Assembly: GCA_044451405.1 (NCBI GenBank)
Contig: JBIOKB010000005.1
Coordinates: 1 to 37,402 of the forward strand
DNA from: Candidatus Babeliales bacterium
GTDB taxonomy: Bacteria > Babelota > Babeliae > Babelales > Vermiphilaceae
Reading direction: 5' to 3'
Length of the DNA stretch: 37,402 nucleotides
In this document: piece by piece, positions 2,898 through 27,219 of the stretch
Layout of the letters: every line of letters begins with the position of its first letter
Position numbering within the stretch: the first letter of the stretch is position 1
Notes under the pieces: model-generated
The model's database searches: none
Told to the model about the DNA's origin: nothing
What the model saw: only the letters and a program-made list of their open reading frames with translations
Made by a program: the position numbers and the translations under genes

Positions 2898-3200
2898 ATG
2901 ATCACCGCCTACACCACAAGCATATCCATCATTGGCGGTTGTATATTCGGATTTATATACGGACTCTTCTTCTTACACCAAAGAGGAAGAGTCTTTTTAT
3001 TACCATCAGATACTCCGTTATATAAACATTATATTACTATGATACTTTCAACCATCGGTCGCTTAGGGGTACTTGTATTCCTCTGGTATCATATATTGCT
3101 ATCACCAACAATTAATTTTATACTTTTGCTATCGTCTTTTTTAGGAGCTTTTTGGGTCACCCTACTACGCCCTGTCTACGGGGATAAACACAAGTCGTAA
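2898..3200 (+). CDS. ATP synthase accessory membrane protein (AtpI/AtpR-like)
   Basis: 100-aa hydrophobic protein directly upstream of atpB; G..FG..Y..FF, S...R, LG.F pattern resembles AtpI/AtpR proteins. Confidence 0.6.
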   Translation: MITAYTTSISIIGGCIFGFIYGLFFLHQRGRVFLLPSDTPLYKHYITMILSTIGRLGVLVFLWYHILLSPTINFILLLSSFLGAFWVTLLRPVYGDKHKS

Positions 3201-3242: not shown

Positions 3243-3998
3243 ATGGAAGGCTTAAATCTTCTGCACGTAGAACAGTGGAAGCCATTGGCGCATTATGGTT
3301 TTACCCATCCTTTTTTTTATCTTAATGCAGAAACTATTGTATATACCTGGGTTGCTCTCAGCATTCTCATCATACTTGTACTTCCTATTAATTTAATTTT
3401 AAGCGCACGCAACAGCACCATGCGTTTTGCACTTGTTTCATCCCTTGAATCCTTTGCACAATTTACTACCCAAACGCTCGGCGTATTTTCATTCGAACAT
3501 TTTAGCTTTGTTGCATCATTATTTATTTTTATTGCCATATGTAACTGCTTGTCGGTCATTCCCTGGCTTGAAGAACCAACACAAGATTTAAATACTACCC
3601 TTGCCCTTGGTATTATTTCATTTCTTTATGTACAATGGCACGCCATACGCGCCCAGGGTATAACGCATTATATAAAAGAATACTTTCAACCTTTTTTTAT
3701 CATGTTTCCACTGCACGTTGTGGGTAAATTAGCGACCATTATTTCCATTTCATTTCGTCTTTTTGGAAACATATTTGGTGGCGCAACTATTTCCCACCTT
3801 TATTTTGCGCTCATTAAAAGTTCTATCTTTTATGAAATTCTCGGGTTATTGAGCTTGAACATGCTCGTTACTTTCTTTTTTGGCCTTTTTGAAGGGCTCC
3901 TGCAAGCATTTATATTTTCTATGCTTACCCTCACTTATTTATCTATCGCATTACATGGTGAAATGGATGAAAAAACTGACGAAGGGATTCTTACATGA
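3243..3998 (+). CDS. atpB: F0F1 ATP synthase subunit a
   Basis: PTQDLNTTLALG, SISFRLFGNIFGG with the essential Arg, LFEGLLQAFIFSMLT. Confidence 0.96.
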   Translation: MEGLNLLHVEQWKPLAHYGFTHPFFYLNAETIVYTWVALSILIILVLPINLILSARNSTMRFALVSSLESFAQFTTQTLGVFSFEHFSFVASLFIFIAICNCLSVIPWLEEPTQDLNTTLALGIISFLYVQWHAIRAQGITHYIKEYFQPFFIMFPLHVVGKLATIISISFRLFGNIFGGATISHLYFALIKSSIFYEILGLLSLNMLVTFFFGLFEGLLQAFIFSMLTLTYLSIALHGEMDEKTDEGILT

Positions 3999-4951
3999 TG
4001 CTCACGTCTGATTACTTACACTATGGCACTATTGCCCTTGCAGCAGCAATTAATGCCGTTGGTGTTGGCATTGGTGAAGGTATAACAAGCCGTGCGGCTA
4101 TTGAGGCAATCAATATTCAACCACACGCCAAAACAGACATTATTAAAACGGCGGTATTTGGCATGGCACTTATTGAAACCGCTGCTATTATGGGTATTAC
4201 CGTAGCACTTATTCTGCTTATCAGTACCCAAACAAACACAAGCGATTATGCACGCATTGCTGAAAGTGGTATTGCGCTGGCTATTTGTTTACCGGGCCTT
4301 TTTATTGGTTTTGTATCAGCATTTCCTGCCCAAGAAGCATGCTTATCTATTGCCCGTCAGCCATTTTTTAGTCAGAAAATATTGCGCTTTATGCTCCTTA
4401 CCCAATCAGTACTGCAAACGCCCATCATTTCTGGTTTTATCATTGCCATGTTAATTCGTGCACAAGCAGAATATGTAACCACTCTCGCACAAGGATTACA
4501 ACTGCTCGCAAGCGGATTATGCATTGGATTAGGCAGCATCGGCCCTTCTATTGGATTAGGTATATTTGCACGGACTGCATGTAAAAGCATTAGCATTAAC
4601 CGTGATGCCTATAATCGATTACTGTCTTTTACCTTAGTCAGCCAAGCTATTATTGAAACATCAGTTATTTTTGCGCTCGTAATTTCTATTTTAATTGTCT
4701 TTGCAAACCCTGCATTAACTATAGTTGGCGGTCTTGCATTACTCGGTGCTGCAATAAGCACTGGCCTTGGTACGTTTGGTGCGGGCATTAGTAATGGACG
4801 CACCTCTGCCGCTACGTGCAAAGCAATTGCACTCAATCCTGATACGTACACCCAATTGTCACGTACCAGCATGATTGCGCAAAGTCTTATTGATACTACT
4901 CCTATTTATGCGTTAATTGTTTCTATAATTCTTATTTTCTGGGGCACATAA
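3995..4951 (+). CDS. atpE: ATP synthase subunit c, four fused hairpin repeats (8 TM helices)
   Basis: Four ~80-aa repeats, each with a small-residue-rich helix, a polar loop (IQP, RQP, INR, LNP) and a second helix with E61, Q141, E221 or D300; ATGA overlap with the atpB stop. Confidence 0.92.
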   Translation: MMLTSDYLHYGTIALAAAINAVGVGIGEGITSRAAIEAINIQPHAKTDIIKTAVFGMALIETAAIMGITVALILLISTQTNTSDYARIAESGIALAICLPGLFIGFVSAFPAQEACLSIARQPFFSQKILRFMLLTQSVLQTPIISGFIIAMLIRAQAEYVTTLAQGLQLLASGLCIGLGSIGPSIGLGIFARTACKSISINRDAYNRLLSFTLVSQAIIETSVIFALVISILIVFANPALTIVGGLALLGAAISTGLGTFGAGISNGRTSAATCKAIALNPDTYTQLSRTSMIAQSLIDTTPIYALIVSIILIFWGT

Positions 4952-5870: not shown

Positions 5871-6802
5871 ATATACTGCATAACAACACCCAAATCGATC
5901 GGTTCAGGACGCATGCAATAGGTGCCTTCTATCAAAGGGGTACCAACGCAATTAAGAAGATTGTATTCACGTCCATAGTGTAACGGTGTTACATATACAT
6001 GCTGATATCCGCCATACTGCACCAACCAGTTACACACACGGATCATGTGGGATCCACCAGCAATAATAATGATGGTAGATTCAGGTGCATGTATAACACT
6101 GTGCAAAACTTTAATATCAAGCAACATGCTATCAACGGTAAGCACTTTATTTAATACATCAAGACGATTATCTGGCGTTGAATGGTGATGCATGTACTGG
6201 GCTACACTCACATGACGCATTTCAGGAAGTTTGAGCCGAGAAAGTTCCGATTGTACTTCACGCACAATCTTTTTATACAACGCATTGAACCGTGGCCCAT
6301 CATTATATGTTTTTATTTCTTTGATGCTATCGTCAATTTCTTGCAAGAGCACACCAATAAGTATGGTATTAGTAGATTGAAATGGCATTTCTGTCTGTTC
6401 GATATTATTAATAACAGGACCTAGTGAAGCTACCCGGCAATACCGATATTCTACATTATCTACCGTTAACCCAGACTCCTGGCAGCGTTGCGTTAATCCA
6501 CCTAAAATACCGCCACGCGAATTAATAACAAATGGGCCGCACGAATTGCGCCCGTTAGAAGCGCACGAACTTAAATCTTCTACAATAAGTCGCGTATTTT
6601 TTTTATGGCAACGCGCCATAATTTGTTCAAGTTGAGTCTGTTGTTCTACTGTTGAAGTATGCGTTTTGTCATGAAAATCACTGAGCCCTATAATATTTTT
6701 GCGTGGACCCCATTTTCTAACAACGCGCGCTTCATAAATAAATGCAGAAGTTGTGTGTGCTACGCATATTCCTATAAGTAATACAGAACATAGTATTTTC
6801 AT
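5867..6802 (-). CDS. Secreted hypothetical protein, possibly TraB/EreA/ChaN-like fold
   Basis: N-terminal signal peptide; IIGLSDFH, LIVED and IIIAGGSH motifs; start overlaps the upstream YVTN gene stop. Confidence 0.7.
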   Translation of the reverse strand: MKILCSVLLIGICVAHTTSAFIYEARVVRKWGPRKNIIGLSDFHDKTHTSTVEQQTQLEQIMARCHKKNTRLIVEDLSSCASNGRNSCGPFVINSRGGILGGLTQRCQESGLTVDNVEYRYCRVASLGPVINNIEQTEMPFQSTNTILIGVLLQEIDDSIKEIKTYNDGPRFNALYKKIVREVQSELSRLKLPEMRHVSVAQYMHHHSTPDNRLDVLNKVLTVDSMLLDIKVLHSVIHAPESTIIIIAGGSHMIRVCNWLVQYGGYQHVYVTPLHYGREYNLLNCVGTPLIEGTYCMRPEPIDLGVVMQYI

Positions 6803-8142
6803 AACACCATCTGTAGTCCTCGTACCGTCACATTCCCTAACAACGTTTTATTTCCTGCTTGATCAACTGCTACCAGATAATAAGTATAGGTAAGCTTTGG
6901 ATTGCGATTATGATCTTTAAAGCGCAATGGCCCATTTGCTGGTACCGTTCCTGCAAGATCTGTAAGTGCTGCGTCACGGTATAATTGATAGCTTACCGGC
7001 GTTACCGTGGTTGGCGTGGTCCAGGTGATAACATTGATAAAATCGGTTTGTGTTAAAAAAATGTTTTTTTGCTGCACACCAGAAACGGTAATTGATGCTG
7101 TTGGTACTGGTGGCGTAGATCCAGGAACAATAGCTATAAATTCTGGTTGAAGTAATTGAGACATTGAATCAGTTACCACACCTTGCGCAGTAACCGTATT
7201 AGCTGCAGCATTAATGATGCTCACCGAAGAATCTCCTATACTATTATTAGCCACATATGCAGTAGTACCATCAAAAGTAAAAACTACACCAAATGGCGCA
7301 TTAAAATTTGGCGATAATACCGTTGGCGTTACTGAATCAACAGTATTAGTTGCAACATCAATAACACTTACCGTGTTATTATTCCGATTGGTTACATATG
7401 CTTTGCTACCATCAGGAGATATTGCTACGCCAAACGGTTGATGAAAATTCGGATTACTAACAGTGGTTACCGTATTAGCAGGAATAGCAATCACGCTTAC
7501 GGAATTGCCACTACGATTTGTCACGTACGCCTTTGAACCATCTGGCGTGATAGCAATAAGTTGCGGCGAATTAAATGAAGCATCATGTATTACAGCTGTT
7601 ACGATATTACCGGGAATAGCAATAACACTCACGGTATTTCCACTACCGTTAACCACATATGCCTTTGAACCATCAGGGGTAATAGCGATACCTTGTGACA
7701 CACTAAAAGAAACATCCGTAATACCTTGTGTCACAGTATTTGAAGCAATATCAATAACACTGACTACATTGCTACCATTATTAGTAACATAGGCCGTTTT
7801 ACCATTGGGGGTAATTGCTATACCAAAGGGAGCATTAAAGGTAGATCCTGGATCAGCTACTGTTGTTGTTACCGTATTAGTTGCAACATCAATAACAGTT
7901 ACCGTACCGAAAGTAAATGGAGTACGACCTGCATCAACCACATACACCGTACTCCCATCAGGTGTAATGGCAAGTTGCTTAGGATTAACAAAGCTTGCAT
8001 CAGTTATTTTTTGCGTAACGGTATTAGTTGCTGTATCAAACACAACAACATCATTTGAATTCGTTACATATGCCGTTGCGCCGTATGTACTATTGTTTAC
8101 TACAAGAAGCATGCTTATGAGCACACCAAAACATATATTCAT
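6799..8142 (-). CDS. Secreted YVTN/YncE-family beta-propeller protein with C-terminal Ig/FN3-like domain (paralog A)
   Basis: Seven ~43-aa repeats GIAITPDG.KAYVTN...VSVID; signal peptide; start placed at 8142 after an AAGGA RBS (ORF track gives 8148). Confidence 0.9.
   Translation of the reverse strand: MNICFGVLISMLLVVNNSTYGATAYVTNSNDVVVFDTATNTVTQKITDASFVNPKQLAITPDGSTVYVVDAGRTPFTFGTVTVIDVATNTVTTTVADPGSTFNAPFGIAITPNGKTAYVTNNGSNVVSVIDIASNTVTQGITDVSFSVSQGIAITPDGSKAYVVNGSGNTVSVIAIPGNIVTAVIHDASFNSPQLIAITPDGSKAYVTNRSGNSVSVIAIPANTVTTVSNPNFHQPFGVAISPDGSKAYVTNRNNNTVSVIDVATNTVDSVTPTVLSPNFNAPFGVVFTFDGTTAYVANNSIGDSSVSIINAAANTVTAQGVVTDSMSQLLQPEFIAIVPGSTPPVPTASITVSGVQQKNIFLTQTDFINVITWTTPTTVTPVSYQLYRDAALTDLAGTVPANGPLRFKDHNRNPKLTYTYYLVAVDQAGNKTLLGNVTVRGLQMVL
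6824..7140. repeat. 317-bp direct repeat, copy 1 (C-terminal domain of paralog A)
   Basis: Aligned by eye to 8179-8495: no gaps, 19 mismatches (about 94%). Confidence 0.9.
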
Positions 8143-8150
8143 TGTCATCC

Positions 8151-9494
8151 TTACGAGCCAAAGATATTCAATCCTACCACCGTCACATTCCCTAACAATG
8201 TTTTATTTCCCGCTTGATCGACTGCTACCAGGTAATAGGTATACGTAAGTTTTGGATTGCGATTATGATCTTTAAAGCGCAATGGCCCATTTGCTGGTAC
8301 CGTTCCTGCAAGGTCTGTAAGTGCTGCATCACGGTATAGTTGATAGCTTACTGGCGTTACCGTGGTTGGCGTGGTCCAGGTAATAACGTTGATATAATCG
8401 GTTTGTGTTAAAAAAATGTTTTTTTGCTGCACACCAGAAACAGTAATTGATGCTGTTGGCGTTGGTGGCGTAGATCCAGGAACGATAGCTATAAAGAAGG
8501 GTTGATTAAAAAACGAGCTTGAGTCAGTTACTACACCTTGCGCAGTAACCGTATTAGTTGCAGCATTAATGATACTTACCGAAGAATTTCCCATTCTATT
8601 ATTAGCTACATACGCGGTAGTACCATCTGGGGTAAAAACTACACCCTTCGGCAAATTAAAATTAGGAGATAATACCGTTGGCGTTATTGAATCAACCTGA
8701 TTATTTGCAACATCAATAACACTGACAAAAGGGGTTATTGCATCATTAGTTACATATGCTTTGCTACCATCCGGAGATATTGCTACGCCAAACGGTTGAA
8801 CAAAATTCGGATTAGTAACGGTAGTTACCGTATTAGCAGGGATAGCTATTACACTCACTGAGTTGCCCGATTCATTTGTTACATACGCCTTTGAACCATC
8901 TGGTGCAATAGCAATAAGTTGCGGTGAATTAAATGAAGGATCGCTTATTACATCTGTCACAGTATTACCAGGAATAGCAATAACACTTACTGTATTATTA
9001 CCATTATCAACCACATATGCCATGGTACCATTGGGAGTAATTGCAATACCCTGAGGGTTTCCAAAAGAAGTTATGGCCTGTGTCACCGTATTTGAAGCAA
9101 TATCAATAACACTTACACTGGCTCCTGCAAAATTAGTGACATAGGCAGTTTTACCATTGGGAGTAATTGCTATACCAAAGGGTTGGTTAAAGGTTGTACT
9201 CAAATCAGTTACGATACCTTCTACCGTATTTGTTGCTACATTAATAATAGTTACAGAACCAAAATTAAACAAACCATCACCCGCATCAACCACATACACC
9301 GTGCTCCCATCAGGCGTAATAGCAAGTTGCTGGGGAATAACAAAGCTTGCATCAGTTATTTTTTGCGTAACGGTATTGGTTGTTGTATCAAACACAACAA
9401 CATCAGTACGTTGTGTTACATAAGCCGTTGCACCGTATACAGCATTATGTACTAGAAAGAGCATGCTTATGAGGACACCAGAGCATTTGTTCAT
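8151..9494 (-). CDS. Secreted YVTN/YncE-family beta-propeller protein with C-terminal Ig/FN3-like domain (paralog B)
   Basis: Same architecture as paralog A; tandem duplicate. Confidence 0.92.
   Translation of the reverse strand: MNKCSGVLISMLFLVHNAVYGATAYVTQRTDVVVFDTTTNTVTQKITDASFVIPQQLAITPDGSTVYVVDAGDGLFNFGSVTIINVATNTVEGIVTDLSTTFNQPFGIAITPNGKTAYVTNFAGASVSVIDIASNTVTQAITSFGNPQGIAITPNGTMAYVVDNGNNTVSVIAIPGNTVTDVISDPSFNSPQLIAIAPDGSKAYVTNESGNSVSVIAIPANTVTTVTNPNFVQPFGVAISPDGSKAYVTNDAITPFVSVIDVANNQVDSITPTVLSPNFNLPKGVVFTPDGTTAYVANNRMGNSSVSIINAATNTVTAQGVVTDSSSFFNQPFFIAIVPGSTPPTPTASITVSGVQQKNIFLTQTDYINVITWTTPTTVTPVSYQLYRDAALTDLAGTVPANGPLRFKDHNRNPKLTYTYYLVAVDQAGNKTLLGNVTVVGLNIFGS
8179..8495. repeat. 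317-bp direct repeat, copy 2 (C-terminal domain of paralog B)
   Basis: Partner of 6824-7140, offset 1355 bp. Confidence 0.9.
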
Positions 9495-9503
9495 AAATAT
9501 ACC

Positions 9504-10118
9504 TTACGCAAATCGATAGCCAATACCAAGCCCTACCATCCAATGTGAAACGTTCGCTTTATGTGATTGCACGCCACAGATAAATTTATTAGGAAATTTA
9601 ACCTTTATAAATGCATAGTCAGAAAAGAGATCAATAAACCATGAACGTGGCAAATCAAAAATAAAGCCAAGCTTTGCAACACCACCAACTCCCCATTTAG
9701 AGCGTGGTGAAATAACAAAAGAAGAATGATCTTTTGTTTTTAGATGGGCGCCAAGCACACCAAGCCCAATATATAAATCACCGGGATTAAAATCTAAGAA
9801 ATATTTTAATCCTGCTGCCAGCGGAATGAGTGTTGCATTTGTTTTAGTACAAAAGCCAATCGATTTTCCATGAAGCGGTATTACACCAATACTTGCAAAA
9901 CCAAACCACGGCCGCTCTTCTTTTAGCTGTACCGTTAACTCACCACTAAATTCACCGGCATTATGATAGATATCTCTAAACGTATGCGCTGCTGGTAATA
10001 CATACGCACCTTTGAGTTCTGCAAGCACATTCCACTCGTATGATGCTTTGTAGTTTGCATGCACAGTGAACACACTCATCATTATTAATAGACCATATAC
10101 ATATTTATTGTGCATCAT
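9504..10118 (-). CDS. Outer-membrane beta-barrel protein (OmpW/OmpA-like, about 8 strands)
   Basis: Signal peptide, alternating amphipathic strands, C-terminal beta signal GLGIGYRF. Confidence 0.85.
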   Translation of the reverse strand: MMHNKYVYGLLIMMSVFTVHANYKASYEWNVLAELKGAYVLPAAHTFRDIYHNAGEFSGELTVQLKEERPWFGFASIGVIPLHGKSIGFCTKTNATLIPLAAGLKYFLDFNPGDLYIGLGVLGAHLKTKDHSSFVISPRSKWGVGGVAKLGFIFDLPRSWFIDLFSDYAFIKVKFPNKFICGVQSHKANVSHWMVGLGIGYRFA

Positions 10119-10140
10119 TGCTATCCCTTTTTTACTTATT

Positions 10141-10239
10141 TTACCAGTTTCTGTTAGTCACAAATGCTTTTGTTGCATACATATAATTGCTGAAAGTGAA
10201 TACCAACACACTCAGTAACATCGTATATCTTTTGACCAT
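10141..10239 (-). pseudogene. 32-aa truncated remnant of a YVTN propeller gene
   Basis: AAGGAG RBS, then MVKRYTMLLSVLVFTFSNYMYA-TKAFVTNRNW-stop; mature start matches ATAYVTN and AAKGYVTN of the intact paralogs. Confidence 0.7.
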
Positions 10240-14075: not shown

Positions 14076-14845
14076 CACCAGATGAAACACGAAAGTTTGA
14101 TTTTGGCTCTCCCGTTTCTGTCCATCTTGTTGTTGGACCACGTGAGGATGCACACGAGCACATCAAAGACTATTTCATGCGATTATTTTGCAAAAAAAAT
14201 GCGTGCGCTACCTGTTCTATCTGTCATGCTATTAAAGATGAGCAATATCACGCTGCAACGTGGATCAAGCCTAAAGACTCGTATGTGTTGGATGATCTTG
14301 ATCCCATATTTTCAACTATCTCATTTGCTCTAGAAGAAGATCAGAAGCATTTTTTTGTCATTACTAAAGCTGATTTTTTAAGCCCGCAATGTGCTAACCG
14401 TTTACTCAAAGTACTGGAAGAACCACCGCATAATTATTATTTCATACTTCTAGCTGAACGGAGCAAAAACATACTGCCTACCATTAAATCTCGGTGCATC
14501 AAAAGTAGCGTCATTGCAGGCCTATCGTCTGTGTATCACCCTACATTGGCAGCATTTTTTATCAAGCAAAATCCTATTAACCCGAGCTCTTTTCTAAAAG
14601 AATTAGATCAGACAAAAATTAATGATCAAGAAACTCTAGACCTTCTTGATCATCTATTAGATCATTGGTCAGAACAAGCACATACAGCGATTGATGAACA
14701 TACGATGCACGCGTATACATATGCTCAGCAGATGGTATATATCATTACTCAGGGATTACTGCATGCGCCGATGCCCGGCAGTAGCAGCTTGTTTTGGAAA
14801 AATTTTATGCTCGAAGTACAAGAGCTGCGCAAGAGAAAACTTTAG
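14066..14845 (+). CDS. holB: DNA polymerase III delta-prime subunit
   Basis: C4 zinc motif C....C..C..C, ANRLLKVLEEPP, ILPTIKSRC; conserved position after tmk. Confidence 0.88.
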   Translation: MYITPDETRKFDFGSPVSVHLVVGPREDAHEHIKDYFMRLFCKKNACATCSICHAIKDEQYHAATWIKPKDSYVLDDLDPIFSTISFALEEDQKHFFVITKADFLSPQCANRLLKVLEEPPHNYYFILLAERSKNILPTIKSRCIKSSVIAGLSSVYHPTLAAFFIKQNPINPSSFLKELDQTKINDQETLDLLDHLLDHWSEQAHTAIDEHTMHAYTYAQQMVYIITQGLLHAPMPGSSSLFWKNFMLEVQELRKRKL

Positions 14846-17412
14846 GCTTTTTCACACCCGACGCGTACTTTGCTATTCTTCCCCTCATACAGCTTAAAAT
14901 AAATTGTTTTAATAACATCAGATGCTATAAAGTACGCAAAGGTAATAATGACAATTTTAAGCAGCTGCATCAGGGTAATAGGTACAAAAAAGAAGGCTCC
15001 TTGTCCCAGATTTGTATAGGGCAATAAAACGCCAACAGCAGCTGTTAACGCAATCATACACGCAAGCAACCATGAAGGTCCTACTGATGTAAATACACTC
15101 CGGCTGGTGCGAATAGAACAAATGAATGCCATCTGCGTGAGAATATTTTCTACAAACCAACCGGTTTGCAATTCTGCTGCTGATAATTTAACAAAGATTG
15201 AAAAGTAGACAAAATCAAACAGCGAACTTACCACACCCAAAATGGTTGCAAGCAGCGCAATCTCTTTTGCATCGTATTGTCCTGCACGCTTTAATTCTTC
15301 TGGCGCAACGTTATCTGTAGCAACAGAAATCATAGGAAAATCAGACATAAAATTAAGAAGTAAAATTTGTACGGGGAGTAGCGGCAGCTGCTCAAGAAGC
15401 ATAGATGCAACAGACAGTGTATAAAAGTTACCAAACGTTGATGATAGCGTTGCACGAATATATTTGAGTGTGTTAGCAAAAATGGTACGCCCTTCAACAA
15501 TACCGTTAACCACAACCATGAGACTTTTTTCTAACAAAATAATATCGGCTGCTTCACGTGCAATATCTGCGGAATCATGCACTGCAAGTGCTACGCGCGC
15601 TTCTTTTAATGCTGGTGCGTCATTCATACCATCACCTAAATACCCAACTTCTTTGTATTCTTGTAATAGATGAATGATCTCAAATTTTTGCTGCGGTGAA
15701 ATGCGTGCAAATACTTTGTGCTTTTTTACTGCAGCTTTTTTTTCAGCCTCTGACATCTTTGCAAATTCACTGCCTATCACTACTGCTTTTGGATCACATA
15801 TAAGACCAATCTGACACGCAACTGCAGAACACACTTCCTTTGCATCGCCACTAATAATTTTGCATTCAATATTATAACGTTGGGCTTTTTCAATAGCGTG
15901 TACCGCTGTTGCTTTAAGCGGATCTTCAAATGCTACGGCACCTATAAAGGTACATTCATCTACTTTTTCAAGCCCTTCATAATCAGCTGCACGTGGCGCT
16001 GTAACTTCTTTTTTTGCAACTGCTAATATGCGATGACCTTTATTTCCTTCTTGCTCAAGCCAGGCGCGTATTGCTTTTTTTTCATCAGTTGAAAGTACAC
16101 AGCGTTCAATTAAAAATTCTGCTGCGCCACGAATGACTAGCTCATGAGCATCTTGCTTTTTTACTAATACTGCATCACTTCGCTTAATAGGATCAAAGGG
16201 GAATTCTGCAATGCGTTCATATGATTCAAGTTGTTTTTTAGTTTGCGTATCAAGCGCCTGATACAAAGCGATATCAAATCCTTTAAGGCTTGCAACATTT
16301 TTACCGGTAAAGCTTCCTGATAGATTCTCGTATACAATAGTATGCTGTGAATCGGAACCGTACACATTGCGTACACTTAATTTATTTTCAGTAAGCGTAC
16401 CTGTTTTATCAGCGCATAAAATTTCTATGTTGCCCAAATCTTCAATAGCCGATAGCCGCTTTACCACCGTTTTATGGCGCGCTAAGCGCAATGCACCTTG
16501 CGAAAGTGCAAAGGTAGTTACAATAGGCAATGCTTCAGGTATTACTGATACTGCAAGTGCTGCTGAAAACAGAACGAGCTCAACTAAATCAACCTTGCCA
16601 TCTTTTACGATAAGATTCACCGTAAATATAATGATGATGGAAATAAGCATCATACGCAAAATAAAGCGACTAAATTTTCCGATAAAAAGTGAAAAACTGC
16701 TCACCCGTTCAGTGGTGACCGTTAAGCTTGCAATGGCACCTAATGCACCACGAGTGCCTGTTGCAATAATAACGCCTACCCCTTTTCCGCTAATAACGGT
16801 AGTACCTGAAAATACGATATTGGTTGCTTCAAAAAGTTGTGTGGTAGCTTGCGCAAGTGCATCTACTTGTTTTACTACGGGAATTGATTCACCCGTTAAT
16901 AATGATTCATCAATTTTAAGATTTTGTGCACGTATAATACGCATGTCAGCAGGAATAATATCTCCAGGATACATGAGCACAATATCACCGGGAACTAACT
17001 CTTCTTGTGGTATTTTACCCTCGGTACCATTACGGATCACCGTAACATAATTAACCAAATATTTTTTTAAAAATTGCAGCGCTTTATCAGCCCGATATTC
17101 CTGCCAGAAGCCAACAGCCGTATTTACAAACACAATCAGCAGCACCACCGCACCTTCAAGATGATTTTCAAAGAAAAATGAGATGCATGCAACTGCTAAT
17201 AATAAATAAATAAATGGAGACTTAATTTGATGTGCTATGCGATTATACCAATGGGTCTGTTCGCCCGTAATTTTGTTAAGCCCATATTCTTTTTGCCGAT
17301 CCATTGCCTGTTGTTGGGTAAGGCCGCTGGTACTATCACTCTTTAATTGGGCAACTACCGCATCAGCTGATTGATTGGTAAAGGGGGAGAAAACAGCATC
17401 TTGCACATTCAT
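14842..17412 (-). CDS. mgtA: P-type ATPase, probably Mg2+-transporting (MgtA-like)
   Basis: TGES, PEALP, DKTGTLT, GDGMNDAPAL; S.FGN, QILL.N..SD, DNV and QTGWFVE match the P3B Mg2+ subfamily. Confidence 0.85.
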   Translation of the reverse strand: MNVQDAVFSPFTNQSADAVVAQLKSDSTSGLTQQQAMDRQKEYGLNKITGEQTHWYNRIAHQIKSPFIYLLLAVACISFFFENHLEGAVVLLIVFVNTAVGFWQEYRADKALQFLKKYLVNYVTVIRNGTEGKIPQEELVPGDIVLMYPGDIIPADMRIIRAQNLKIDESLLTGESIPVVKQVDALAQATTQLFEATNIVFSGTTVISGKGVGVIIATGTRGALGAIASLTVTTERVSSFSLFIGKFSRFILRMMLISIIIIFTVNLIVKDGKVDLVELVLFSAALAVSVIPEALPIVTTFALSQGALRLARHKTVVKRLSAIEDLGNIEILCADKTGTLTENKLSVRNVYGSDSQHTIVYENLSGSFTGKNVASLKGFDIALYQALDTQTKKQLESYERIAEFPFDPIKRSDAVLVKKQDAHELVIRGAAEFLIERCVLSTDEKKAIRAWLEQEGNKGHRILAVAKKEVTAPRAADYEGLEKVDECTFIGAVAFEDPLKATAVHAIEKAQRYNIECKIISGDAKEVCSAVACQIGLICDPKAVVIGSEFAKMSEAEKKAAVKKHKVFARISPQQKFEIIHLLQEYKEVGYLGDGMNDAPALKEARVALAVHDSADIAREAADIILLEKSLMVVVNGIVEGRTIFANTLKYIRATLSSTFGNFYTLSVASMLLEQLPLLPVQILLLNFMSDFPMISVATDNVAPEELKRAGQYDAKEIALLATILGVVSSLFDFVYFSIFVKLSAAELQTGWFVENILTQMAFICSIRTSRSVFTSVGPSWLLACMIALTAAVGVLLPYTNLGQGAFFFVPITLMQLLKIVIITFAYFIASDVIKTIYFKLYEGKNSKVRVGCEKA

Positions 17413-17561
17413 TACAACATCCTTTTAAGAACATCAAACACATGGAATACAAATATACATCGTTACCATACACAGAAATTTTCTCCTGAGTAAATCATTG
17501 ACTTGAAGTAAGCAAACAGGGAATTATGCGTACATAGTATTGTATAACAATGAGGAATATT

Positions 17562-19898
17562 ATGAAAACACAATATCACATAACGTTATGTGCGCTATTC
17601 TTACATAGTGGCACCATGTTACACGCAGCAAAAGGATATGTAACCAACAATTCTGGCAACAGTGTGAGCGTTTTTGATACCACTACAAATAAAGTGACTA
17701 ACATAGTAAACGATCCGCAAGCAACGATTAATAGCCCTAATCAGCTTGCTATCACACCGAATGGAACAAAAGCCTATGTAGTTAATAGTAATGGAACTAC
17801 CGACAATGGATCAGTAAGTATTATTAATGTTGCAAATGATACGGTCATACAAAAAGTAACCGATTTAAGCACACCAACATTTGACCGCCCACAAGCCATA
17901 GCAATTACACCTAATGGAGCGTTCGCCTATGTAACAAATGCAAATAATAATAGTGTGAGTATTATTGATATTTCAACCAATTCAGTCATAGGTACCGTAA
18001 CAGATCTTTTCCCCACGACATTATCCTCCCCTCTGGGTATTGCTATAACTCCCGATGGCGCTACCGCGTATGTAGTTAATACTGGTAATGACACGGTAAG
18101 TGTTGTTAATCTTAAAACAAATAAAGTAACGGAAACCGTAGCCACTCCAAATTTTGCTACTCCCTTTTATATTGCCATCACACCAAGCGGCCAATTTGCC
18201 TATGTTACTAATAATGGAAACAATACCGTAAGTATTATTAATATTGCTAATAATGCCACTCAAGGATTGGTTACTGATATAGGTACGTTTAATGTACCTT
18301 TTGATGTTGCTATTACACCCAATGGTCTTACGGCCTATGTAAGCAATGCAGGAGTAGTAAGCGTTATTAATGTTAAAACTAATACCGTAACGCAAACAGT
18401 AACCAGCTACCCTCACACTGACCCCCAAGGCATAGCATTTACCCAAGATTCAACTATTGCATACATCGCTGATGAAGGAGGACGAAATCCGAGTTTTGTA
18501 GGTATTGTTGATGTCACAAATAATACCCTAACGCCCCAAGGATCGGTAACTGATCTAACACCAGCAACATTTAGTGATGCAATCTTTATTGCTATTGTCC
18601 CCGCGCAAGTTCCACAACCAACACCACCTTCAGCAAAAGTATATGTAACCAATGAAATTGGTAATAGCGTGAGCATTTTTAATACAAGCACTAATGTCGT
18701 TACGGGTACCGTAACTGATCTGATACCAGCAACATTTAACAATCCTACACAAATTGCAGTTACCCCTAATGGCAAAACGGCATATGTAATTAATACAACT
18801 CATCTTACTCTTGTTTCAACTATTTCTGTCATCAACGTTGCTACTAATGCAGTGACACAAAAAGTAACTGATTTGAGCCCCCATACATTTCAAGATTCTC
18901 AAGATATTGCAATTACACCTGATGGAACAACGGCGTATGTAACTAATTTTGGCAATAATAGCGTGAGTGTTATTAACCTTACCAGTAACAGTGTGACACA
19001 AACCGTAACTGGCACCTTTAATGGCCCTACTGGCATAGCGATTAATTCTGCTGGAACATTTGCTTATGTAACTAATAATACGGGCAATACCGTAAGCGTC
19101 ATTAATCTCAGTAGCAATACGGTCATACAAACAATAACGTCAGCCGATTTTAATGGACCACAGTTTATTGCCATCGCCCCTAATGGTTTTGCCTATGTAA
19201 CTAACAATACGGGCAATACGGTAAGCATTATTGATCTTTCTAACAATACGGTAATCGGAATTGTTACTGATCCTCACCAGTTTCTTAGTGGTCCATTTGC
19301 AATTGCTATCAATCCTAATGGAACAACCGCCTATGTAACGAATCAAACTACGTATAGGGTTGTTGCTATTAATCTTTCTAATAATACGGTAATAGGACCG
19401 ATAGGTGATCCTAACTTTAATTTGCCGGTTGGTGTAGCCTTTACGAGCGATGGCAGTGTTGCGTATGTGGCTAATGCTAATAGTGATACGGTAAGCATTA
19501 TCAATACTGCTTTAAATAGCGTAACACTTATGGGCGTAGTAAGCGATCCAGATCACACATTTAACTTCCCTCAATTTATTGTTGTCATTCCTATACCAGC
19601 TTCAACTTCATCGATCTTCTTAAGTGGAACACAAAATAAAAATATCTTTTTAACGCAAACCGATTATATCAATATTATAACGTGGATTAGGCCAACCAAT
19701 GTAACGCCAGTTACCTATAAGCTCTACCGTAATGCAGCACTCACTACTCTTGCTGGTACTGTTGCTGCAACTGCCCCTTTACAATTTGTAGATCACAATC
19801 GTAATCCGAAGCTCAACTATACCTACTATCTTGTAGCGGTCGATGCAGCCGGTACCAGTACCTTGCTTGGCAATGTTACCGTTAATGGGAAAATATAA
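17562..19898 (+). CDS. Secreted double YVTN beta-propeller protein with C-terminal Ig/FN3-like domain (paralog C)
   Basis: About 14 YVTN repeats in two sets joined by VPAQVPQPTPPS; same NIFLTQTDYIN...DHNRNPKL.YTYYLVAVD domain; GAGGA RBS before ATG 17562. Confidence 0.92.
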   Translation: MKTQYHITLCALFLHSGTMLHAAKGYVTNNSGNSVSVFDTTTNKVTNIVNDPQATINSPNQLAITPNGTKAYVVNSNGTTDNGSVSIINVANDTVIQKVTDLSTPTFDRPQAIAITPNGAFAYVTNANNNSVSIIDISTNSVIGTVTDLFPTTLSSPLGIAITPDGATAYVVNTGNDTVSVVNLKTNKVTETVATPNFATPFYIAITPSGQFAYVTNNGNNTVSIINIANNATQGLVTDIGTFNVPFDVAITPNGLTAYVSNAGVVSVINVKTNTVTQTVTSYPHTDPQGIAFTQDSTIAYIADEGGRNPSFVGIVDVTNNTLTPQGSVTDLTPATFSDAIFIAIVPAQVPQPTPPSAKVYVTNEIGNSVSIFNTSTNVVTGTVTDLIPATFNNPTQIAVTPNGKTAYVINTTHLTLVSTISVINVATNAVTQKVTDLSPHTFQDSQDIAITPDGTTAYVTNFGNNSVSVINLTSNSVTQTVTGTFNGPTGIAINSAGTFAYVTNNTGNTVSVINLSSNTVIQTITSADFNGPQFIAIAPNGFAYVTNNTGNTVSIIDLSNNTVIGIVTDPHQFLSGPFAIAINPNGTTAYVTNQTTYRVVAINLSNNTVIGPIGDPNFNLPVGVAFTSDGSVAYVANANSDTVSIINTALNSVTLMGVVSDPDHTFNFPQFIVVIPIPASTSSIFLSGTQNKNIFLTQTDYINIITWIRPTNVTPVTYKLYRNAALTTLAGTVAATAPLQFVDHNRNPKLNYTYYLVAVDAAGTSTLLGNVTVNGKI

Positions 19899-24083: not shown

Positions 24084-25180
24084 ATAGTTCCACACCCCAA
24101 ACGCCGGGTACCGTCTGCTTTATTGCGGGTCGATCGGGCGGGCATCTCATACCAGCTCTTACCTTAGCTGAGCGGCATAAAGATCAATTTCCTGATGATG
24201 AAATTGTATTTTTTTCTACTAATACCTCCCTTGATTGCCGCATCCTCCAAGAAAGTAAGCGCAAGGTAATTGATGAGTATATTACCTTTGATTTGGATAA
24301 CGTACCTCACCGCTTACTTGAATATCCTGCCTATGCGTTCAAGGTATTGAAAGTCTTTTGCTACGCTTTTAAATTCTTTTATACGCGCAAACCTAAAAAG
24401 ATTGTAAGTACCGGCGGCTATATATCGGTACCCATATGTTATGCCGCATACCTGGTGCGTGTTTATATAGAACTCCATGAATTTAATGTTATTCCGGGGC
24501 AAGCCATTAAGCTCATGTCCAAGTTTGCAAATCGCGTATTTATCTCCTTTGGAGAAGCATCTATCCAGTTACGCTCGGTTGCCTGCTCATTGGTTGGCTA
24601 CCCGGTACGGTTCCCTCCTGCTATGCGTGAATGGCCTCAAGAAGTAGTGGTCACTGGTATCGAACTTTCTTCCGTACGTAAAACGTTATTTATTGTGGGT
24701 GGATCTCAAGGCTCACTGTTTATTAATGGTCTTATCAGAGAATGGGTACTGCGCAACCATGAATATTATCATCTATTACAGATAATCCATCAGACGGGAT
24801 CTCAAGATCCCTTTAATTGGAAAGAATTTTATAACCAGCTTGGTATTCCTGCTATTGTGTTTGATTTTAGCGATCATGTGGAACATTACTACCTAGCAGC
24901 TGACCTTATTGTTAATCGCGCCGGCGCTGGCACTTTATTTGAGATTCTCTTTTTCCCGCGCAAGAGTATTACCATACCGCTTGAAAGCCCAACAACCGAT
25001 CATCAAGTAGCTAATGCTGAGGCAATTGCTGCTATTTATCCCCATGTTTTTACCATATTTAAGCAATCAGATATAACCAAAGATCCCACTGACTTATTTA
25101 AGAAGATGACCGAGCACCTCTTTTTACAACCAAAGCCGTCATACCGGACTATTACACGCACCTTTACCCGCTTTACTTAA
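24080..25180 (+). CDS. murG: Undecaprenyldiphospho-muramoylpentapeptide N-acetylglucosaminyltransferase
   Basis: G.SGGHLIPA, STGGYISVP, HE.NVIPG, G.PVR, GGSQGS, RAGAGT..E, DHQ..NA. Confidence 0.93.
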   Translation: MNSSTPQTPGTVCFIAGRSGGHLIPALTLAERHKDQFPDDEIVFFSTNTSLDCRILQESKRKVIDEYITFDLDNVPHRLLEYPAYAFKVLKVFCYAFKFFYTRKPKKIVSTGGYISVPICYAAYLVRVYIELHEFNVIPGQAIKLMSKFANRVFISFGEASIQLRSVACSLVGYPVRFPPAMREWPQEVVVTGIELSSVRKTLFIVGGSQGSLFINGLIREWVLRNHEYYHLLQIIHQTGSQDPFNWKEFYNQLGIPAIVFDFSDHVEHYYLAADLIVNRAGAGTLFEILFFPRKSITIPLESPTTDHQVANAEAIAAIYPHVFTIFKQSDITKDPTDLFKKMTEHLFLQPKPSYRTITRTFTRFT

Positions 25181-27132
25181 AAGCCAAAGCTCCTTACTTT
25201 TTTCTCTTTTTCTTCAGCTTCTTCCAATATCTTTATAACCTGTTCTTGAATAGCTGGGTTTGCCTCTGCATTATCCCTTACAATATCAAGTGCTGACTTT
25301 CCCTGTCCATTGCGCACCCTAACAAGTGCTCTTTGTCGCAATAATGCCTTAAGAAGTTGTATAGATTCTTCGTTTTGCAATTCGCTTGAAGCAAAGAATA
25401 TCAAAGCAGTATTCATATTGGAGTCAAATGTATTTACCTGAATTTCAGGTGCATCAAGTAATGCAAGAACTGGCGCTAAAAAACCTAATTCAGCCGCAAG
25501 CATCAATGGCGTCACCCCTTGCTCATTTTCTCTATTGACATCAACTCCCGCTTTAATAAGCGCTTGTATAATAGCGGCATTGTTATGCTCTATTGCTAAG
25601 GTGAGTGGCGTAATATTGTTAAATGTAGCTTCAACATCTGGTTGTGGGTCACGTGCAAGAAGTTCTGCCACCCGCTTTACATCCCCATGATTAATTGCTT
25701 TAAATAATGCAGCTGCAGGAGTTTTTGCAATCGGATCACAGCCTATATCAACATCAAAGAGGAGCGTAATCCACTCATTAAATAACAACTCATTTCTACC
25801 TCTGAACTCATCAATCATCTCTTGCACATAGATAGCAACACTCTTTCCGTGTGATCGAACACAAATGTCAGCGCCTCTATCAATCAAAAATTGTGCCACA
25901 ACAAGATTGTAATTTGAAATTGCAGCAATAAGCGGTATTGAACGACTTTGAGCACCTCCAACAACACCATTTATATCTGCTTTAGTAAGCAACACTTCAA
26001 TAATCTGACATTGTACTGCACTAAATTGTGGTGCATCGTGCATACGAAATTTCCAATTAGAGTCAAAATGGGCGCTCGCTACAAGCGCTAAGGGAGTGCT
26101 TCCAAACCGATTAAGAACATTGGGCTCCGCTCCTGCTGCAAGCAATTCAGTAACAATGGCTAACATTGCTTGTGGGACCTCACACATAACTGCAGCTATG
26201 ATGGGTGTTTGATTAACATACTGATAATTAACATTAACCTTATGCGCTAAAAGTGCTTTTACTTTTTTTACATCCCCTATCTTTGCTGCATTAATTAACT
26301 GCAACGCTTCATAATCAACTTTACCTGAAACTTTCAATAATAGTTCTTCTGCTTCACGTGCGTGAGATTGCATAGCTATTTGCAATGCAGTATCGCCATG
26401 GGCGTTCTCTTGTTTTAATTCAAATGATACCAGTGATATTCTTTTTTCCTTCGCTTCTTGGGTAAGGTTGTCCAATATTACTTGTATGATTTTTGAATCA
26501 TTGCGGCGGGAAGCCATCATAAGCACTGTTTGCATTTCGTTGTTAGACATATGCAAACTTGCGCCACGACTTAATAAGAATTCCACCACTGGCACATGAC
26601 CCCCACGAGTTGCATACATCAAGGCAGTATCACCTTGTACATTGTGTGCATTTATCCGTTTCCCTTTACTATAGCTTACTAACAATTCACATATCCGAAG
26701 ATCACCATATTCTGCTGCACGCATGAGCGGTGTTTCTCTAAATTTATTTTGAGCACCAATTTTAACCCCTTGTTGGAACATCTTTCCAACTTCTGCAACA
26801 TATTTTTTATGTTCTTCAGGGTTCTTTCTCTGCATAGCCTCTACCGCTTTCATAATTGTATGCATAATCGGCGTATCTTCTTCTTGTTCTAACCGTATTT
26901 CTTCTGGATTATCACCAACCTCTGTGCGTGGCCCTACTACAACAGGGCTCGGTTTTTTTGTCTTTCTTTTAACATCATGACGAGTTCTGCCTGTTGAACG
27001 ACGACGTGGTTTATAAAACGATGTAGCAGCAGTTTTTTCTTTTTTCTCTTTTTGTTCAACCTCAGCAGCGCCAACAGACATACTCATACTTGCACTCAGT
27101 ACAAGCAGATAGAAACGATAGATTGTGTTCAT
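25177..27132 (-). CDS. Secreted ankyrin-repeat protein
   Basis: Many TPL/TAL ankyrin repeats; signal peptide from MNTIYRF with AAGGA RBS (ORF track starts at 27180). Confidence 0.92.
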   Translation of the reverse strand: MNTIYRFYLLVLSASMSMSVGAAEVEQKEKKEKTAATSFYKPRRRSTGRTRHDVKRKTKKPSPVVVGPRTEVGDNPEEIRLEQEEDTPIMHTIMKAVEAMQRKNPEEHKKYVAEVGKMFQQGVKIGAQNKFRETPLMRAAEYGDLRICELLVSYSKGKRINAHNVQGDTALMYATRGGHVPVVEFLLSRGASLHMSNNEMQTVLMMASRRNDSKIIQVILDNLTQEAKEKRISLVSFELKQENAHGDTALQIAMQSHAREAEELLLKVSGKVDYEALQLINAAKIGDVKKVKALLAHKVNVNYQYVNQTPIIAAVMCEVPQAMLAIVTELLAAGAEPNVLNRFGSTPLALVASAHFDSNWKFRMHDAPQFSAVQCQIIEVLLTKADINGVVGGAQSRSIPLIAAISNYNLVVAQFLIDRGADICVRSHGKSVAIYVQEMIDEFRGRNELLFNEWITLLFDVDIGCDPIAKTPAAALFKAINHGDVKRVAELLARDPQPDVEATFNNITPLTLAIEHNNAAIIQALIKAGVDVNRENEQGVTPLMLAAELGFLAPVLALLDAPEIQVNTFDSNMNTALIFFASSELQNEESIQLLKALLRQRALVRVRNGQGKSALDIVRDNAEANPAIQEQVIKILEEAEEKEKKVRSFGF

Positions 27133-27219
27133 TGCTATCCTTACACATAACAGTTTTATTAAGTGAAAAAACCATACCAAGAGATAAAGAATGGTGTATA
27201 GAGATTGATAAACGAGTAT

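Follow-up and report, generated by a model that had tools for sequence, protein, structure and literature searches.

The window analysed here, a stretch of 37,402 nucleotides (nt) from a Candidatus Babeliales bacterium (assembly GCA_044451405.1, contig JBIOKB010000005.1, positions 1 to 37,402), encodes a c subunit for the rotor of the organism's single F1Fo ATPase, a protein in which one chain joins four c hairpins. We refer to this protein of 318 amino acids (aa) as c4. The source genome (1.02 Mb, 89 contigs, 95.7% complete) also encodes a conventional single-hairpin subunit, c1. Because c1 coexists with c4 across the phylum, we favour a hybrid ring, c4(c1)n, in a single F1Fo ATPase, which we consider probable, and we do not regard a ring built from c4 alone as the likeliest arrangement.

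A subunit c with four fused hairpins

The c4 gene is a single open reading frame (ORF) of 318 aa with no internal stops. Its parts are as follows.

3995..4951, + strand: c4, F-type subunit c with four fused hairpins (ORF, Pfam and NCBIfam matches, AlphaFold2 model)
4031..4216, + strand: hairpin 1, with E28 (4076-4078) and E61 (4175-4177) and loop IQP; putative acceptor half of a two-carboxylate Na+-type site
4268..4456, + strand: hairpin 2, with S108 and Q141 (4415-4417) and loop RQP; no carboxylate
4505..4696, + strand: hairpin 3, with L188 and E221 (4655-4657) and loop INR; carboxylate kept, no Gln or Glu at -33
4742..4933, + strand: hairpin 4, with N267 and D300 (4892-4894) and loop LNP; T301, T302 and Y305 form the putative donor half for the next hairpin

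The Pfam family PF00137 (ATP-synt_C) matches c4 in four stretches, with 125.9 bits against a cut-off of 24, and a six-frame search of the DNA returned four PF00137 matches with E-values from 2.4e-9 to 4.9e-5. Together with a codon check of E28, E61, S108, Q141, L188, E221, N267, D300 and Y305, these matches confirm what the initial annotation had described: four c repeats of about 80 aa with E61, Q141, E221 and D300 at the ion-binding position, that is, three carboxylates per four hairpins, and a Gln in hairpin 2. The residues that it had placed 33 positions upstream (E28, S108, L188 and N267) were likewise found by the codon check, and the RQP loop is intact in repeat 2 only. The four repeats are only 18-35% identical to one another in pairwise comparison and are old, diverged copies. 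An AlphaFold2 model of c4, made with an alignment of 120 relatives, has eight helices arranged in four hairpins (mean predicted local distance difference test (pLDDT) 97.0, predicted template modelling score 0.94).

By profile match, by the carboxylate in the C-terminal helix and by its F-type gene company, c4 is a PF00137 subunit c, and its best NCBIfam models are those of F0F1 subunit C. The V-type K models of NCBIfam gave 39.5-56.3 bits on c4 against cut-offs of 101-211 and the partner subunits are F-type, so c4 is not a V/A-type proteolipid. Models of the N-ATPase also stayed below their cut-offs (TIGR03322, alt_F1F0 C, 110.3 versus 130.85; TIGR03306, alt_F1F0 A, 101.8 versus 302.1), and the beta and epsilon genes do not lie ahead of the Fo genes, as they would in an N-ATPase operon. 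We rejected an assembly artefact or a frameshift as the source of the fusion because members of all parts of the phylum carry collinear homologues of c4 that are full length (313-351 aa).

Both c genes are retained across the phylum

Close homologues of c4 carry the names Candidatus Dependentiae or Babeliales. Matches occur in 259 of the 261 genomes of this phylum and in 189/189 of those of high quality, and the suspicion in the initial annotation that the gene is lineage-wide thus proved right. At least two matches per genome were counted in 249 phylum genomes (from the table of 261). In the source genome, a check for another atpE gene was positive: contig C23 encodes c1, a canonical single hairpin of 81 aa with Q30, E63, T64, S65 and Y68. 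The Q...ET pattern that c1 shows is used as a Na+ motif in a passage of PMC7911925. The F1Fo genes of the source genome are distributed over its contigs as listed below.

Contig C5 (the window): subunit a and c4
Contig C23: c1 (81 aa), b'-like (123 aa), b-like (163 aa), delta (OSCP) and alpha, in this order
Contig C1: gamma
Contig C6: beta and an epsilon of 81 aa

There is thus one gene each for a, alpha, beta, gamma and epsilon, and there are two c genes (c4 and c1). The set is scattered over four loci, and the splits that separate a-c4 and c1-b'-b-delta-alpha are conserved in the phylum.

A sample of 40 relatives, 24 from the same family and 16 from other families, showed two matches in every genome, one of the c4 type and one short c frame. 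The c4-type match is full length in 39 of them (G037 has a partial frame of 150 aa), and its identity to c4 falls as low as 29%. Five genomes had c4 only (G139, G169, G173, G220 and G142), and PF00137 finds no further c in them. The alpha gene of G139 (95% complete) begins 916 nt away from the end of its contig, and a search of G169 and G173, both 86% complete, yielded no alpha; because the alpha locus is cut or was not found, the absence of c1 in these three looks like the result of assembly gaps. Completeness is 67% for G220 and 66% for G142. Five other genomes gave only a weak match of the short-c type, and all of these are 53-78% complete. Genomes of this phylum measure 0.8-1.7 Mb, yet both c genes are kept throughout. 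Among the 150 matches listed, one (in G213) has an internal TGA and 149 are free of stops, including c4 frames of 249-354 aa that come from every part of the phylum.

The two genes have constant, and different, neighbours. The gene next upstream of c4 encodes subunit a in 56 of 57 loci and in 9/9 further ones (65/66 in all), and the exception begins at a contig end. With the first start codon taken as the start, the two genes overlap in 31 of 56 loci, are 0-30 nt apart in 24 and 33 nt apart in one; in the window, the atpB stop codon overlaps the c4 start codon (ATGA). Such frequent overlap suggests translational coupling of c4 to the single-copy subunit a. On the other side, delta and alpha follow c1 on the same strand in 20/20 loci, in which BLAST detected b' in 17 and b in 14, and b' and delta follow c1 in 5/5 further loci. 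Pfam recognises neither the 123-aa nor the 163-aa protein encoded after c1 in the source genome (locus L010, 7960-8331 and 8318-8809), which we call b'-like and b-like from their position and their conservation by BLAST. The position and length of these stalk proteins are conserved despite the lack of a Pfam match.

Putative Na+-type site halves at the two edges of c4

Passages of PMC3692424 on Na+ rings describe an ion site shared by two adjacent hairpins, to which one contributes Gln/Glu32 and Glu65 and the other the Val63 carbonyl and Ser66, with Thr67 acting through a water molecule and Tyr70 bonded to Glu65; the E32/E65 two-carboxylate motif comes from the same source. In the NtpK protein of Enterococcus hirae, the Glu139/Gln110 pair of the second hairpin is set with Leu61, Thr64 and Tyr68 of the first, as given in the relevant part of PMC2359735. 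By analogy, the outer helix of hairpin i-1 would complete the site of hairpin i. Because residues at +1, +2 and +5 complete a neighbour's site, T301, T302 and Y305 would serve the hairpin that follows repeat 4 rather than D300. The initial annotation had seen a shortened Na+ site in repeat 4; the residues that it named (N267, D300, T301, T302 and Y305) are present, but the idea that the last three serve D300 does not hold. Its comparison of repeat 1 with a two-carboxylate site stands, as the pair E28/E61 is present. Read against solved Na+ ring structures in this way, c4 would have the following sites.

Site 1: acceptors E28 and E61; donors from whatever precedes hairpin 1; a full Na+-type site is possible
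Site 2: acceptors S108 and Q141; donors L59, T62, A63 and M66; no carboxylate
Site 3: acceptors L188 and E221; donors V139, T142, P143 and S146; carboxylate, ligand set incomplete
Site 4: acceptors N267 and D300; donors I219, T222, S223 and F226; carboxylate (Asp), ligand set incomplete
Hairpin after hairpin 4: donors L298, T301, T302 and Y305

Full Na+-type halves occur in c4 only at its two outer edges, and these match the halves of c1. We compared both proteins in 19 genomes with the two genes. The c1 motif [Q,E / T/S,x,Y] is present in 15 of them and deviates at one position in the other four (A at +1, F at +5 or M at -33). The Glu of c4 hairpin 1 is kept in 19/19; hairpin 4 has Y at +5 in 19/19 and T or S at +1 in 15/19; and the internal hairpins mostly have T-P...F.

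Each hairpin has its own history

We aligned c4 with 126 representatives of 295-335 aa, drawn from the best 150 of 701 matches after 24 had been dropped for length. At the carboxylate position, the 127 sequences have the following residues.

Hairpin 1: E 122, D 4, G 1
Hairpin 2: Q 96, E 22, M 3, L 3, others 3
Hairpin 3: E 118, S 3, Q 3, G 2, A 1
Hairpin 4: D 76, E 42, Q 5, others 4

As whole patterns, EQED occurs 65 times, EQEE 21 times and EEEE 16 times, beside smaller classes that are partly owed to at least seven sequences of a second, non-collinear four-hairpin family. Each hairpin position has its own residue signature. The RQP loop of hairpin 2 is nearly invariant (R121 in 122/127, P123 in 127/127), Pro stands at +2 in hairpins 2 (109/127) and 3 (108/127), Tyr at +5 in hairpin 4 (109/127), and position -33 of hairpin 1 is Gln in 93/127 and Glu in 12/127. 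This second carboxylate of hairpin 1 (E28 in c4) is mostly a trait of the source genome's own family, f1, in which 26 of 37 loci have it versus 2 of 20 loci elsewhere.

When 146 hairpins were placed in one tree, those of each Dependentiae position came together as a clade, which fits a single fusion before the phylum radiated; the tree is built on about 70 aligned residues, and its deep nodes, including any shared origin with the second four-hairpin family, are unreliable. The E/Q/E/D pattern, which the initial annotation had proposed to test for conservation repeat by repeat, is right for the source genome and not universal. We surveyed all 21 families of the phylum under anonymous labels (f1-f21). 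In a first group, hairpin 2 carries E in f4 (EEEQ), in f7, f8, f12, f17 and f20 (all EEEE) and in f19 (EEED), and the pattern of f15 is EGQE. In a second group, hairpin 2 carries Q in f1, f2, f3, f5, f9, f10, f11, f13, f14, f16, f18 and f21 and M in f6. Patterns in families other than that of the source genome include E/Q/G/E, E/G/Q/E, E/M/E/D and E/E/E/Q. A tree of the alpha subunit (FastTree, 19 ingroup sequences, with three outgroup operons as the root) divides the sampled families into just these groups. There are two main basal clades, one of which retains E at hairpin 2 and is mostly E/E/E/E. Because every hairpin descends from a working c, E/E/E/E is the likeliest ancestral state of c4, and the change from E to Q at hairpin 2 appears to have arisen once, in the clade of the source genome. 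As E/Q/E/D is not phylum-wide, the fusion predates the loss of the site, and selection for that loss cannot explain it.

A probable hybrid ring of c4 and c1

We propose that c4 shares a ring with the separately encoded c1, as c4(c1)n, much like the c1(c2/3)9 ring of Acetobacterium woodii. Hairpin 1 would offer E28 and E61 to the outer helix of the preceding hairpin, and hairpin 4 would offer T301, T302 and Y305 to the Gln/Glu pair of the following one; with these edge halves, both c4-c1 junctions can be complete Na+-type sites. The three junctions inside c4 would be non-canonical, Q141 being blind to the ion and E221 and D300 being carboxylates without Gln and Tyr ligands. One turn would then move n+3 ions over n+4 hairpins for every 3 ATP. 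The predicted coupling ion is Na+.

A two-chain complex prediction of c4 with c1 scored 0.58, and the best of three controls scored 0.00. The mark used is reached by 58 of 80 solved complexes and by 2 of 110 mismatched pairs, and those that reached it with a score of 0.60 or less comprise only 7 of the 80 solved complexes together with both passing mismatches. Contacts agree between the prediction runs to at least 98%, and the pLDDT of the partner is at least 83.

The enzyme probably runs mainly as an ATP-driven pump of Na+ (or of Na+ and H+), because the organism imports ATP and reportedly has no respiratory chain. Three genes for TLC-type ATP/ADP translocases are present in the source genome, two of them in tandem (contig C20, 5432-8285; contig C51, 3283-4605). 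Its epsilon subunit, encoded after beta on contig C6 (locus L011, 7520-7765), has 81 aa and consists of the N-terminal beta-sandwich domain without the C-terminal helical domain. The helices of that domain inhibit ATP hydrolysis in other bacteria. The corresponding model, PF00401, was above its cut-off in 0/41 phylum genomes, although it is insensitive, the control having given a match in only 4 of 14 genomes. According to passages of PMC4776705, TM6 genomes are without an electron transport chain, and ATP hydrolysis may serve to maintain a gradient. The suggestion of ATP-driven pumping made in the initial annotation therefore remains plausible. Its companion claim, a lowered ion/ATP ratio, has fared less well: the drop would be much smaller in a mixed ring, and the ancestral c4 appears to have kept all of its carboxylates.

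As the loss of one site shifts the ion/ATP ratio little and the ancestral c4 would have lost none, the reason for the fusion is more likely structural: it may fix the composition or size of the ring, or supply a single asymmetric part whose synthesis keeps pace with that of subunit a. Any lower ion/ATP ratio would have come after the fusion.

Several points weigh against this hybrid ring. The c4 and c1 genes are neighbours in none of the 66 c4 loci and none of the 25 c1 loci examined in Dependentiae, so that co-regulation is not evident. As c4 retains three of its four carboxylates here and all four in one clade, 12 hairpins of c4 alone could make a ring that works, with 9 or 12 sites, and hairpin 4 of one c4 could equally dock hairpin 1 of another, which would allow a (c4)n ring. 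Coupling to Na+ is predicted from sequence motifs, sites 3 and 4 appear to have no full ligand set, and PMC4776705, in the passages concerned, assumes protons. The structure prediction backs co-assembly of c4 and c1 in one ring weakly; since a similar complex (PDB entry 4BEM) is already solved, the pass may reflect likeness rather than binding.

Alternative explanations

The initial annotation had envisaged a homomeric ring of 8, 12 or 16 hairpins with a quarter of them inactive, that is, (c4)2, (c4)3 or (c4)4, and c1 would then form a separate, alternative ring or be used under other conditions. We think this unlikely, and the phylum-wide presence of a single-hairpin c1 has weakened it. Three carboxylates here and four in one clade would be enough for such a ring to function by itself, T301, T302 and Y305 together with E28 and E61 would complete a two-carboxylate Na+-type site at a c4-c4 junction, and the two genes stand at separate loci in every Dependentiae locus examined. 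A total of 12 hairpins also falls inside the range of 8-15 reported for F-type rings in the part of PMC3692424 that deals with ring size. Two kinds of ring would nevertheless have to share a single set of genes for a, alpha, beta, gamma and epsilon, in genomes of 0.8-1.7 Mb that retain both c genes throughout the phylum, and we know of no enzyme that exchanges whole c-rings. Related multi-hairpin c proteins with a single carboxylate adjoin a normal c in intact operons, and operons of this type have been studied only in A. woodii, where the ring is mixed. The overlap of the a and c4 genes, which suggests near-equal amounts of c4 and of the single-copy subunit a, is a weak argument in the same direction. 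A bolder form of the idea, in which one stator and F1 take two interchangeable rotors and the cell switches between a (c4)n ring with fewer or non-canonical sites and a plain c1 ring, seems to us very improbable; if true, it would be a natural gear-shift of a rotary ATPase, serving for example an ATP-rich intracellular stage and a free stage.

We also give little credence to the view that c4 is no working part of the rotor at all and either helps to assemble the c1 ring, as a scaffold or template, or is a decaying duplicate. The AtpI-like gene close to c4 would suit an assembly role, AtpI being an assembly factor according to a figure legend in PMC7911925, and some families have lost internal ion sites (E/Q/G/E, E/G/Q/E and E/M/E/D). 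A decaying or merely auxiliary protein would, however, hardly keep its frame free of stops in 149 of the 150 matches listed, E in hairpins 1 and 3 in 122 and 118 of 127 sequences, D or E in hairpin 4 in 118, and a nearly invariant RQP loop in hairpin 2, and c4 is modelled with a pLDDT of 97. Conservation of the sites this strong, at identities down to 29%, argues for a selected, ion-carrying role.

Genes around c4 and elsewhere in the window

The genes immediately upstream of c4 are listed below.

1470-2891, + strand: FolC/Mur-ligase-like gene (weak Pfam matches), conserved in most related loci, where it precedes the atpI-like gene, a and c4
2898..3200, + strand: small membrane ORF (100 aa) in the atpI position, weakly AtpI-like (position, sub-threshold profile matches)
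3243..3998, + strand: atpB, F-type subunit a (251 aa; PF00119, 1.4e-33), the sole PF00119 match in the source genome

Subunit a contains the motif SFRLFGN, the Arg of which we take to be the stator arginine, the counterpart of aR210 in Escherichia coli. The 100-aa ORF has homologues upstream of subunit a in many related loci by BLAST. The copy in the source genome has no significant Pfam match; among 15 copies scanned (this one and 14 homologues), five gave sub-threshold matches to ATP-synt_I (PF03899, E 0.0045-0.066) and one to AtpR. Because the Pfam matches are sub-threshold and occur in 5 of 15 copies, we call it only weakly AtpI-like. Downstream of c4 lies a gene for a CysK/CBS-type pyridoxal phosphate-dependent enzyme. 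A scan for promoters and terminators around the c4 locus gave counts not above those of shuffled sequences, and a comparison by eye of the regions upstream of c4 and of c1 showed no clear difference in translation signals. A search for sequencing runs that contain this DNA listed none of RNA and only two of DNA, each with a small share.

Farther along the window, 14842-17412 (- strand) encodes a second cation pump driven by ATP, a P-type cation ATPase of 856 aa that has the domains Cation_ATPase_N and Cation_ATPase_C. Three paralogous proteins with signal peptides and lactonase/YVTN-type beta-propeller repeats are encoded at 6799-8148 (-), 8151-9494 (-) and 17550-19898 (+), and the C-terminal parts of the tandem pair (6799-8148 and 8151-9494) are nearly identical. 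Ankyrin-repeat proteins, a type common in intracellular bacteria, are encoded at 25177-27180 (-) of the window and at 9369-10187 (-) of locus L011.

Comparison with known multi-hairpin c subunits

The number of ion sites per rotor sets the number of ions moved per ATP, and with it whether the enzyme makes a better generator or a better pump. Hybrid F-type rotors are known experimentally from A. woodii only, where the fused subunit has two hairpins. In the present case, intracellular bacteria that import ATP retain, across an entire phylum, a c of four individually specialised hairpins beside a normal c. If the ring is mixed, it would hold chemically different ion sites in a fixed order together with a built-in asymmetric element, and the control of ring size, the docking of the stalk and the passage of an ion-blind position past subunit a could be tested in a natural system. 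We found no published description of a four-hairpin c in Dependentiae, and an earlier listing in reviews or supplements is possible. Among c subunits with more than one hairpin, our literature search found only the A. woodii-type two-hairpin and the archaeal multi-hairpin cases; the passages of PMC4776705 on the TM6 ATP synthase do not mention the c subunit; and a 2026 preprint (bioRxiv 10.64898/2026.10.01.756066), in the section concerned, describes F-type rings as predominantly composed of single hairpins, and the one mixed ring that it names is that of A. woodii.

The best match to c4 among PDB sequences is A. woodii c1 (4bem_J, phmmer E 1.9e-17), on hairpins 3-4, followed by single-hairpin F-type c subunits. 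The same chain is the best structural match (Foldseek E 1.2e-4; root-mean-square deviation 1.8 A over 156 columns; template modelling score 0.45 on the query, of which it covers half), and two-hairpin V-type c subunits come next. These PDB sequence and Foldseek comparisons found no solved chain that covers all four hairpins.

Like c4, NtpK of E. hirae (2BL2) and the c subunit of the eukaryotic V-ATPase have fused hairpins, have lost carboxylates and complete a site from the preceding outer helix. They belong to V/A-type enzymes, whereas all other subunits beside c4 are F-type. The rotor gene of Methanopyrus kandleri, said in a passage of the same preprint (bioRxiv 10.64898/2026.10.01.756066) to encode 13 hairpins, is alike in having more than two hairpins per polypeptide. 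That enzyme is A-type and one polypeptide is thought to form its whole ring, but the four hairpins of c4 cannot close a ring. Two other observations concern long proteins of this kind: the proteins P0216 and P0202 comprise a 1139-aa protein with 15 PF00137 stretches, named from metagenome-assembled genomes of Asgard archaea, and a 968-aa protein with 12 stretches; and a 553-aa multi-hairpin ORF follows subunit a in locus L108, titled Desulfobacterales.

Closer parallels are found in other bacteria. Five-hairpin c proteins include P0169 and P0212 (both E,Q,Q,Q,Q) and P0262 (E in all five), and a second four-hairpin family comprises P0253 (E,E,Q,Q), P0236 (E,Q,Q,Q), P0256 (E,Q,Q,H), P0261 (E,A,A,T) and P0235 (E,S,S,Q). 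A genome scan with P0253 led to loci L104-L106, which lie outside the phylum in uncultured bacteria, one of them titled Candidatus Coatesbacteria. Intact operons have the order a - c4 (320 aa) - single c - b' ... alpha ... beta in L104 and L106 and the order a - two-hairpin c - single c - b ... alpha ... beta in L107 and L109. As in Dependentiae, the genes of these four- and five-hairpin proteins come straight after that of subunit a and have a single-hairpin c as their partner, and the proteins share the layout of E/Q...E acceptors in the first hairpin, T-P...F in the internal ones and S/T...Y in the last. They differ in that six of them (P0253, P0236, P0256, P0261, P0169 and P0212) have 1-3 carboxylates only, in that their operons are intact, and in that they align with the Dependentiae c4 out of register, in two stretches. 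One carboxylate per four or five hairpins, as in P0236, P0169 and P0212, would hardly work in a homomeric ring, which argues that this class of genes was made for mixed rings.

The nearest known system is that of A. woodii and Clostridium aceticum, in which atpE1 (c1) stands ahead of atpE2 (c2) and both products share one ring, made in A. woodii of nine single-hairpin subunits and one four-helix subunit, according to the relevant passages of PMC7911925 and of bioRxiv 10.64898/2026.10.01.756066. Both their c1 and c4 are F-type, are encoded directly after atpB and coexist with a single-hairpin c that has Q...ET. In A. woodii c1, as in c4, one hairpin has exchanged Glu for Gln, the first hairpin keeps its carboxylate and the last keeps T-T...Y, and an alignment shows the same edge design, with AETSGIF in hairpin 1 and AQTTGIY in hairpin 2. 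The A. woodii protein has two hairpins and one carboxylate, whereas c4 has four hairpins and three carboxylates (four in one clade); its Gln stands in the last hairpin and that of c4 in hairpin 2 of 4; and hairpin 4 of c4 uses Asp, unlike A. woodii c1. The hairpins of c4 are 18-35% identical, against 58% reported for C. aceticum c1 in a passage of PMC7911925. The single-hairpin gene of Dependentiae stands at a separate locus, unlike that of A. woodii; joining the two Dependentiae loci would give the same order as in L104, L106 and the A. woodii operon. The mixed ring is known for A. woodii, and for c4 it is proposed from genes and a structure prediction.

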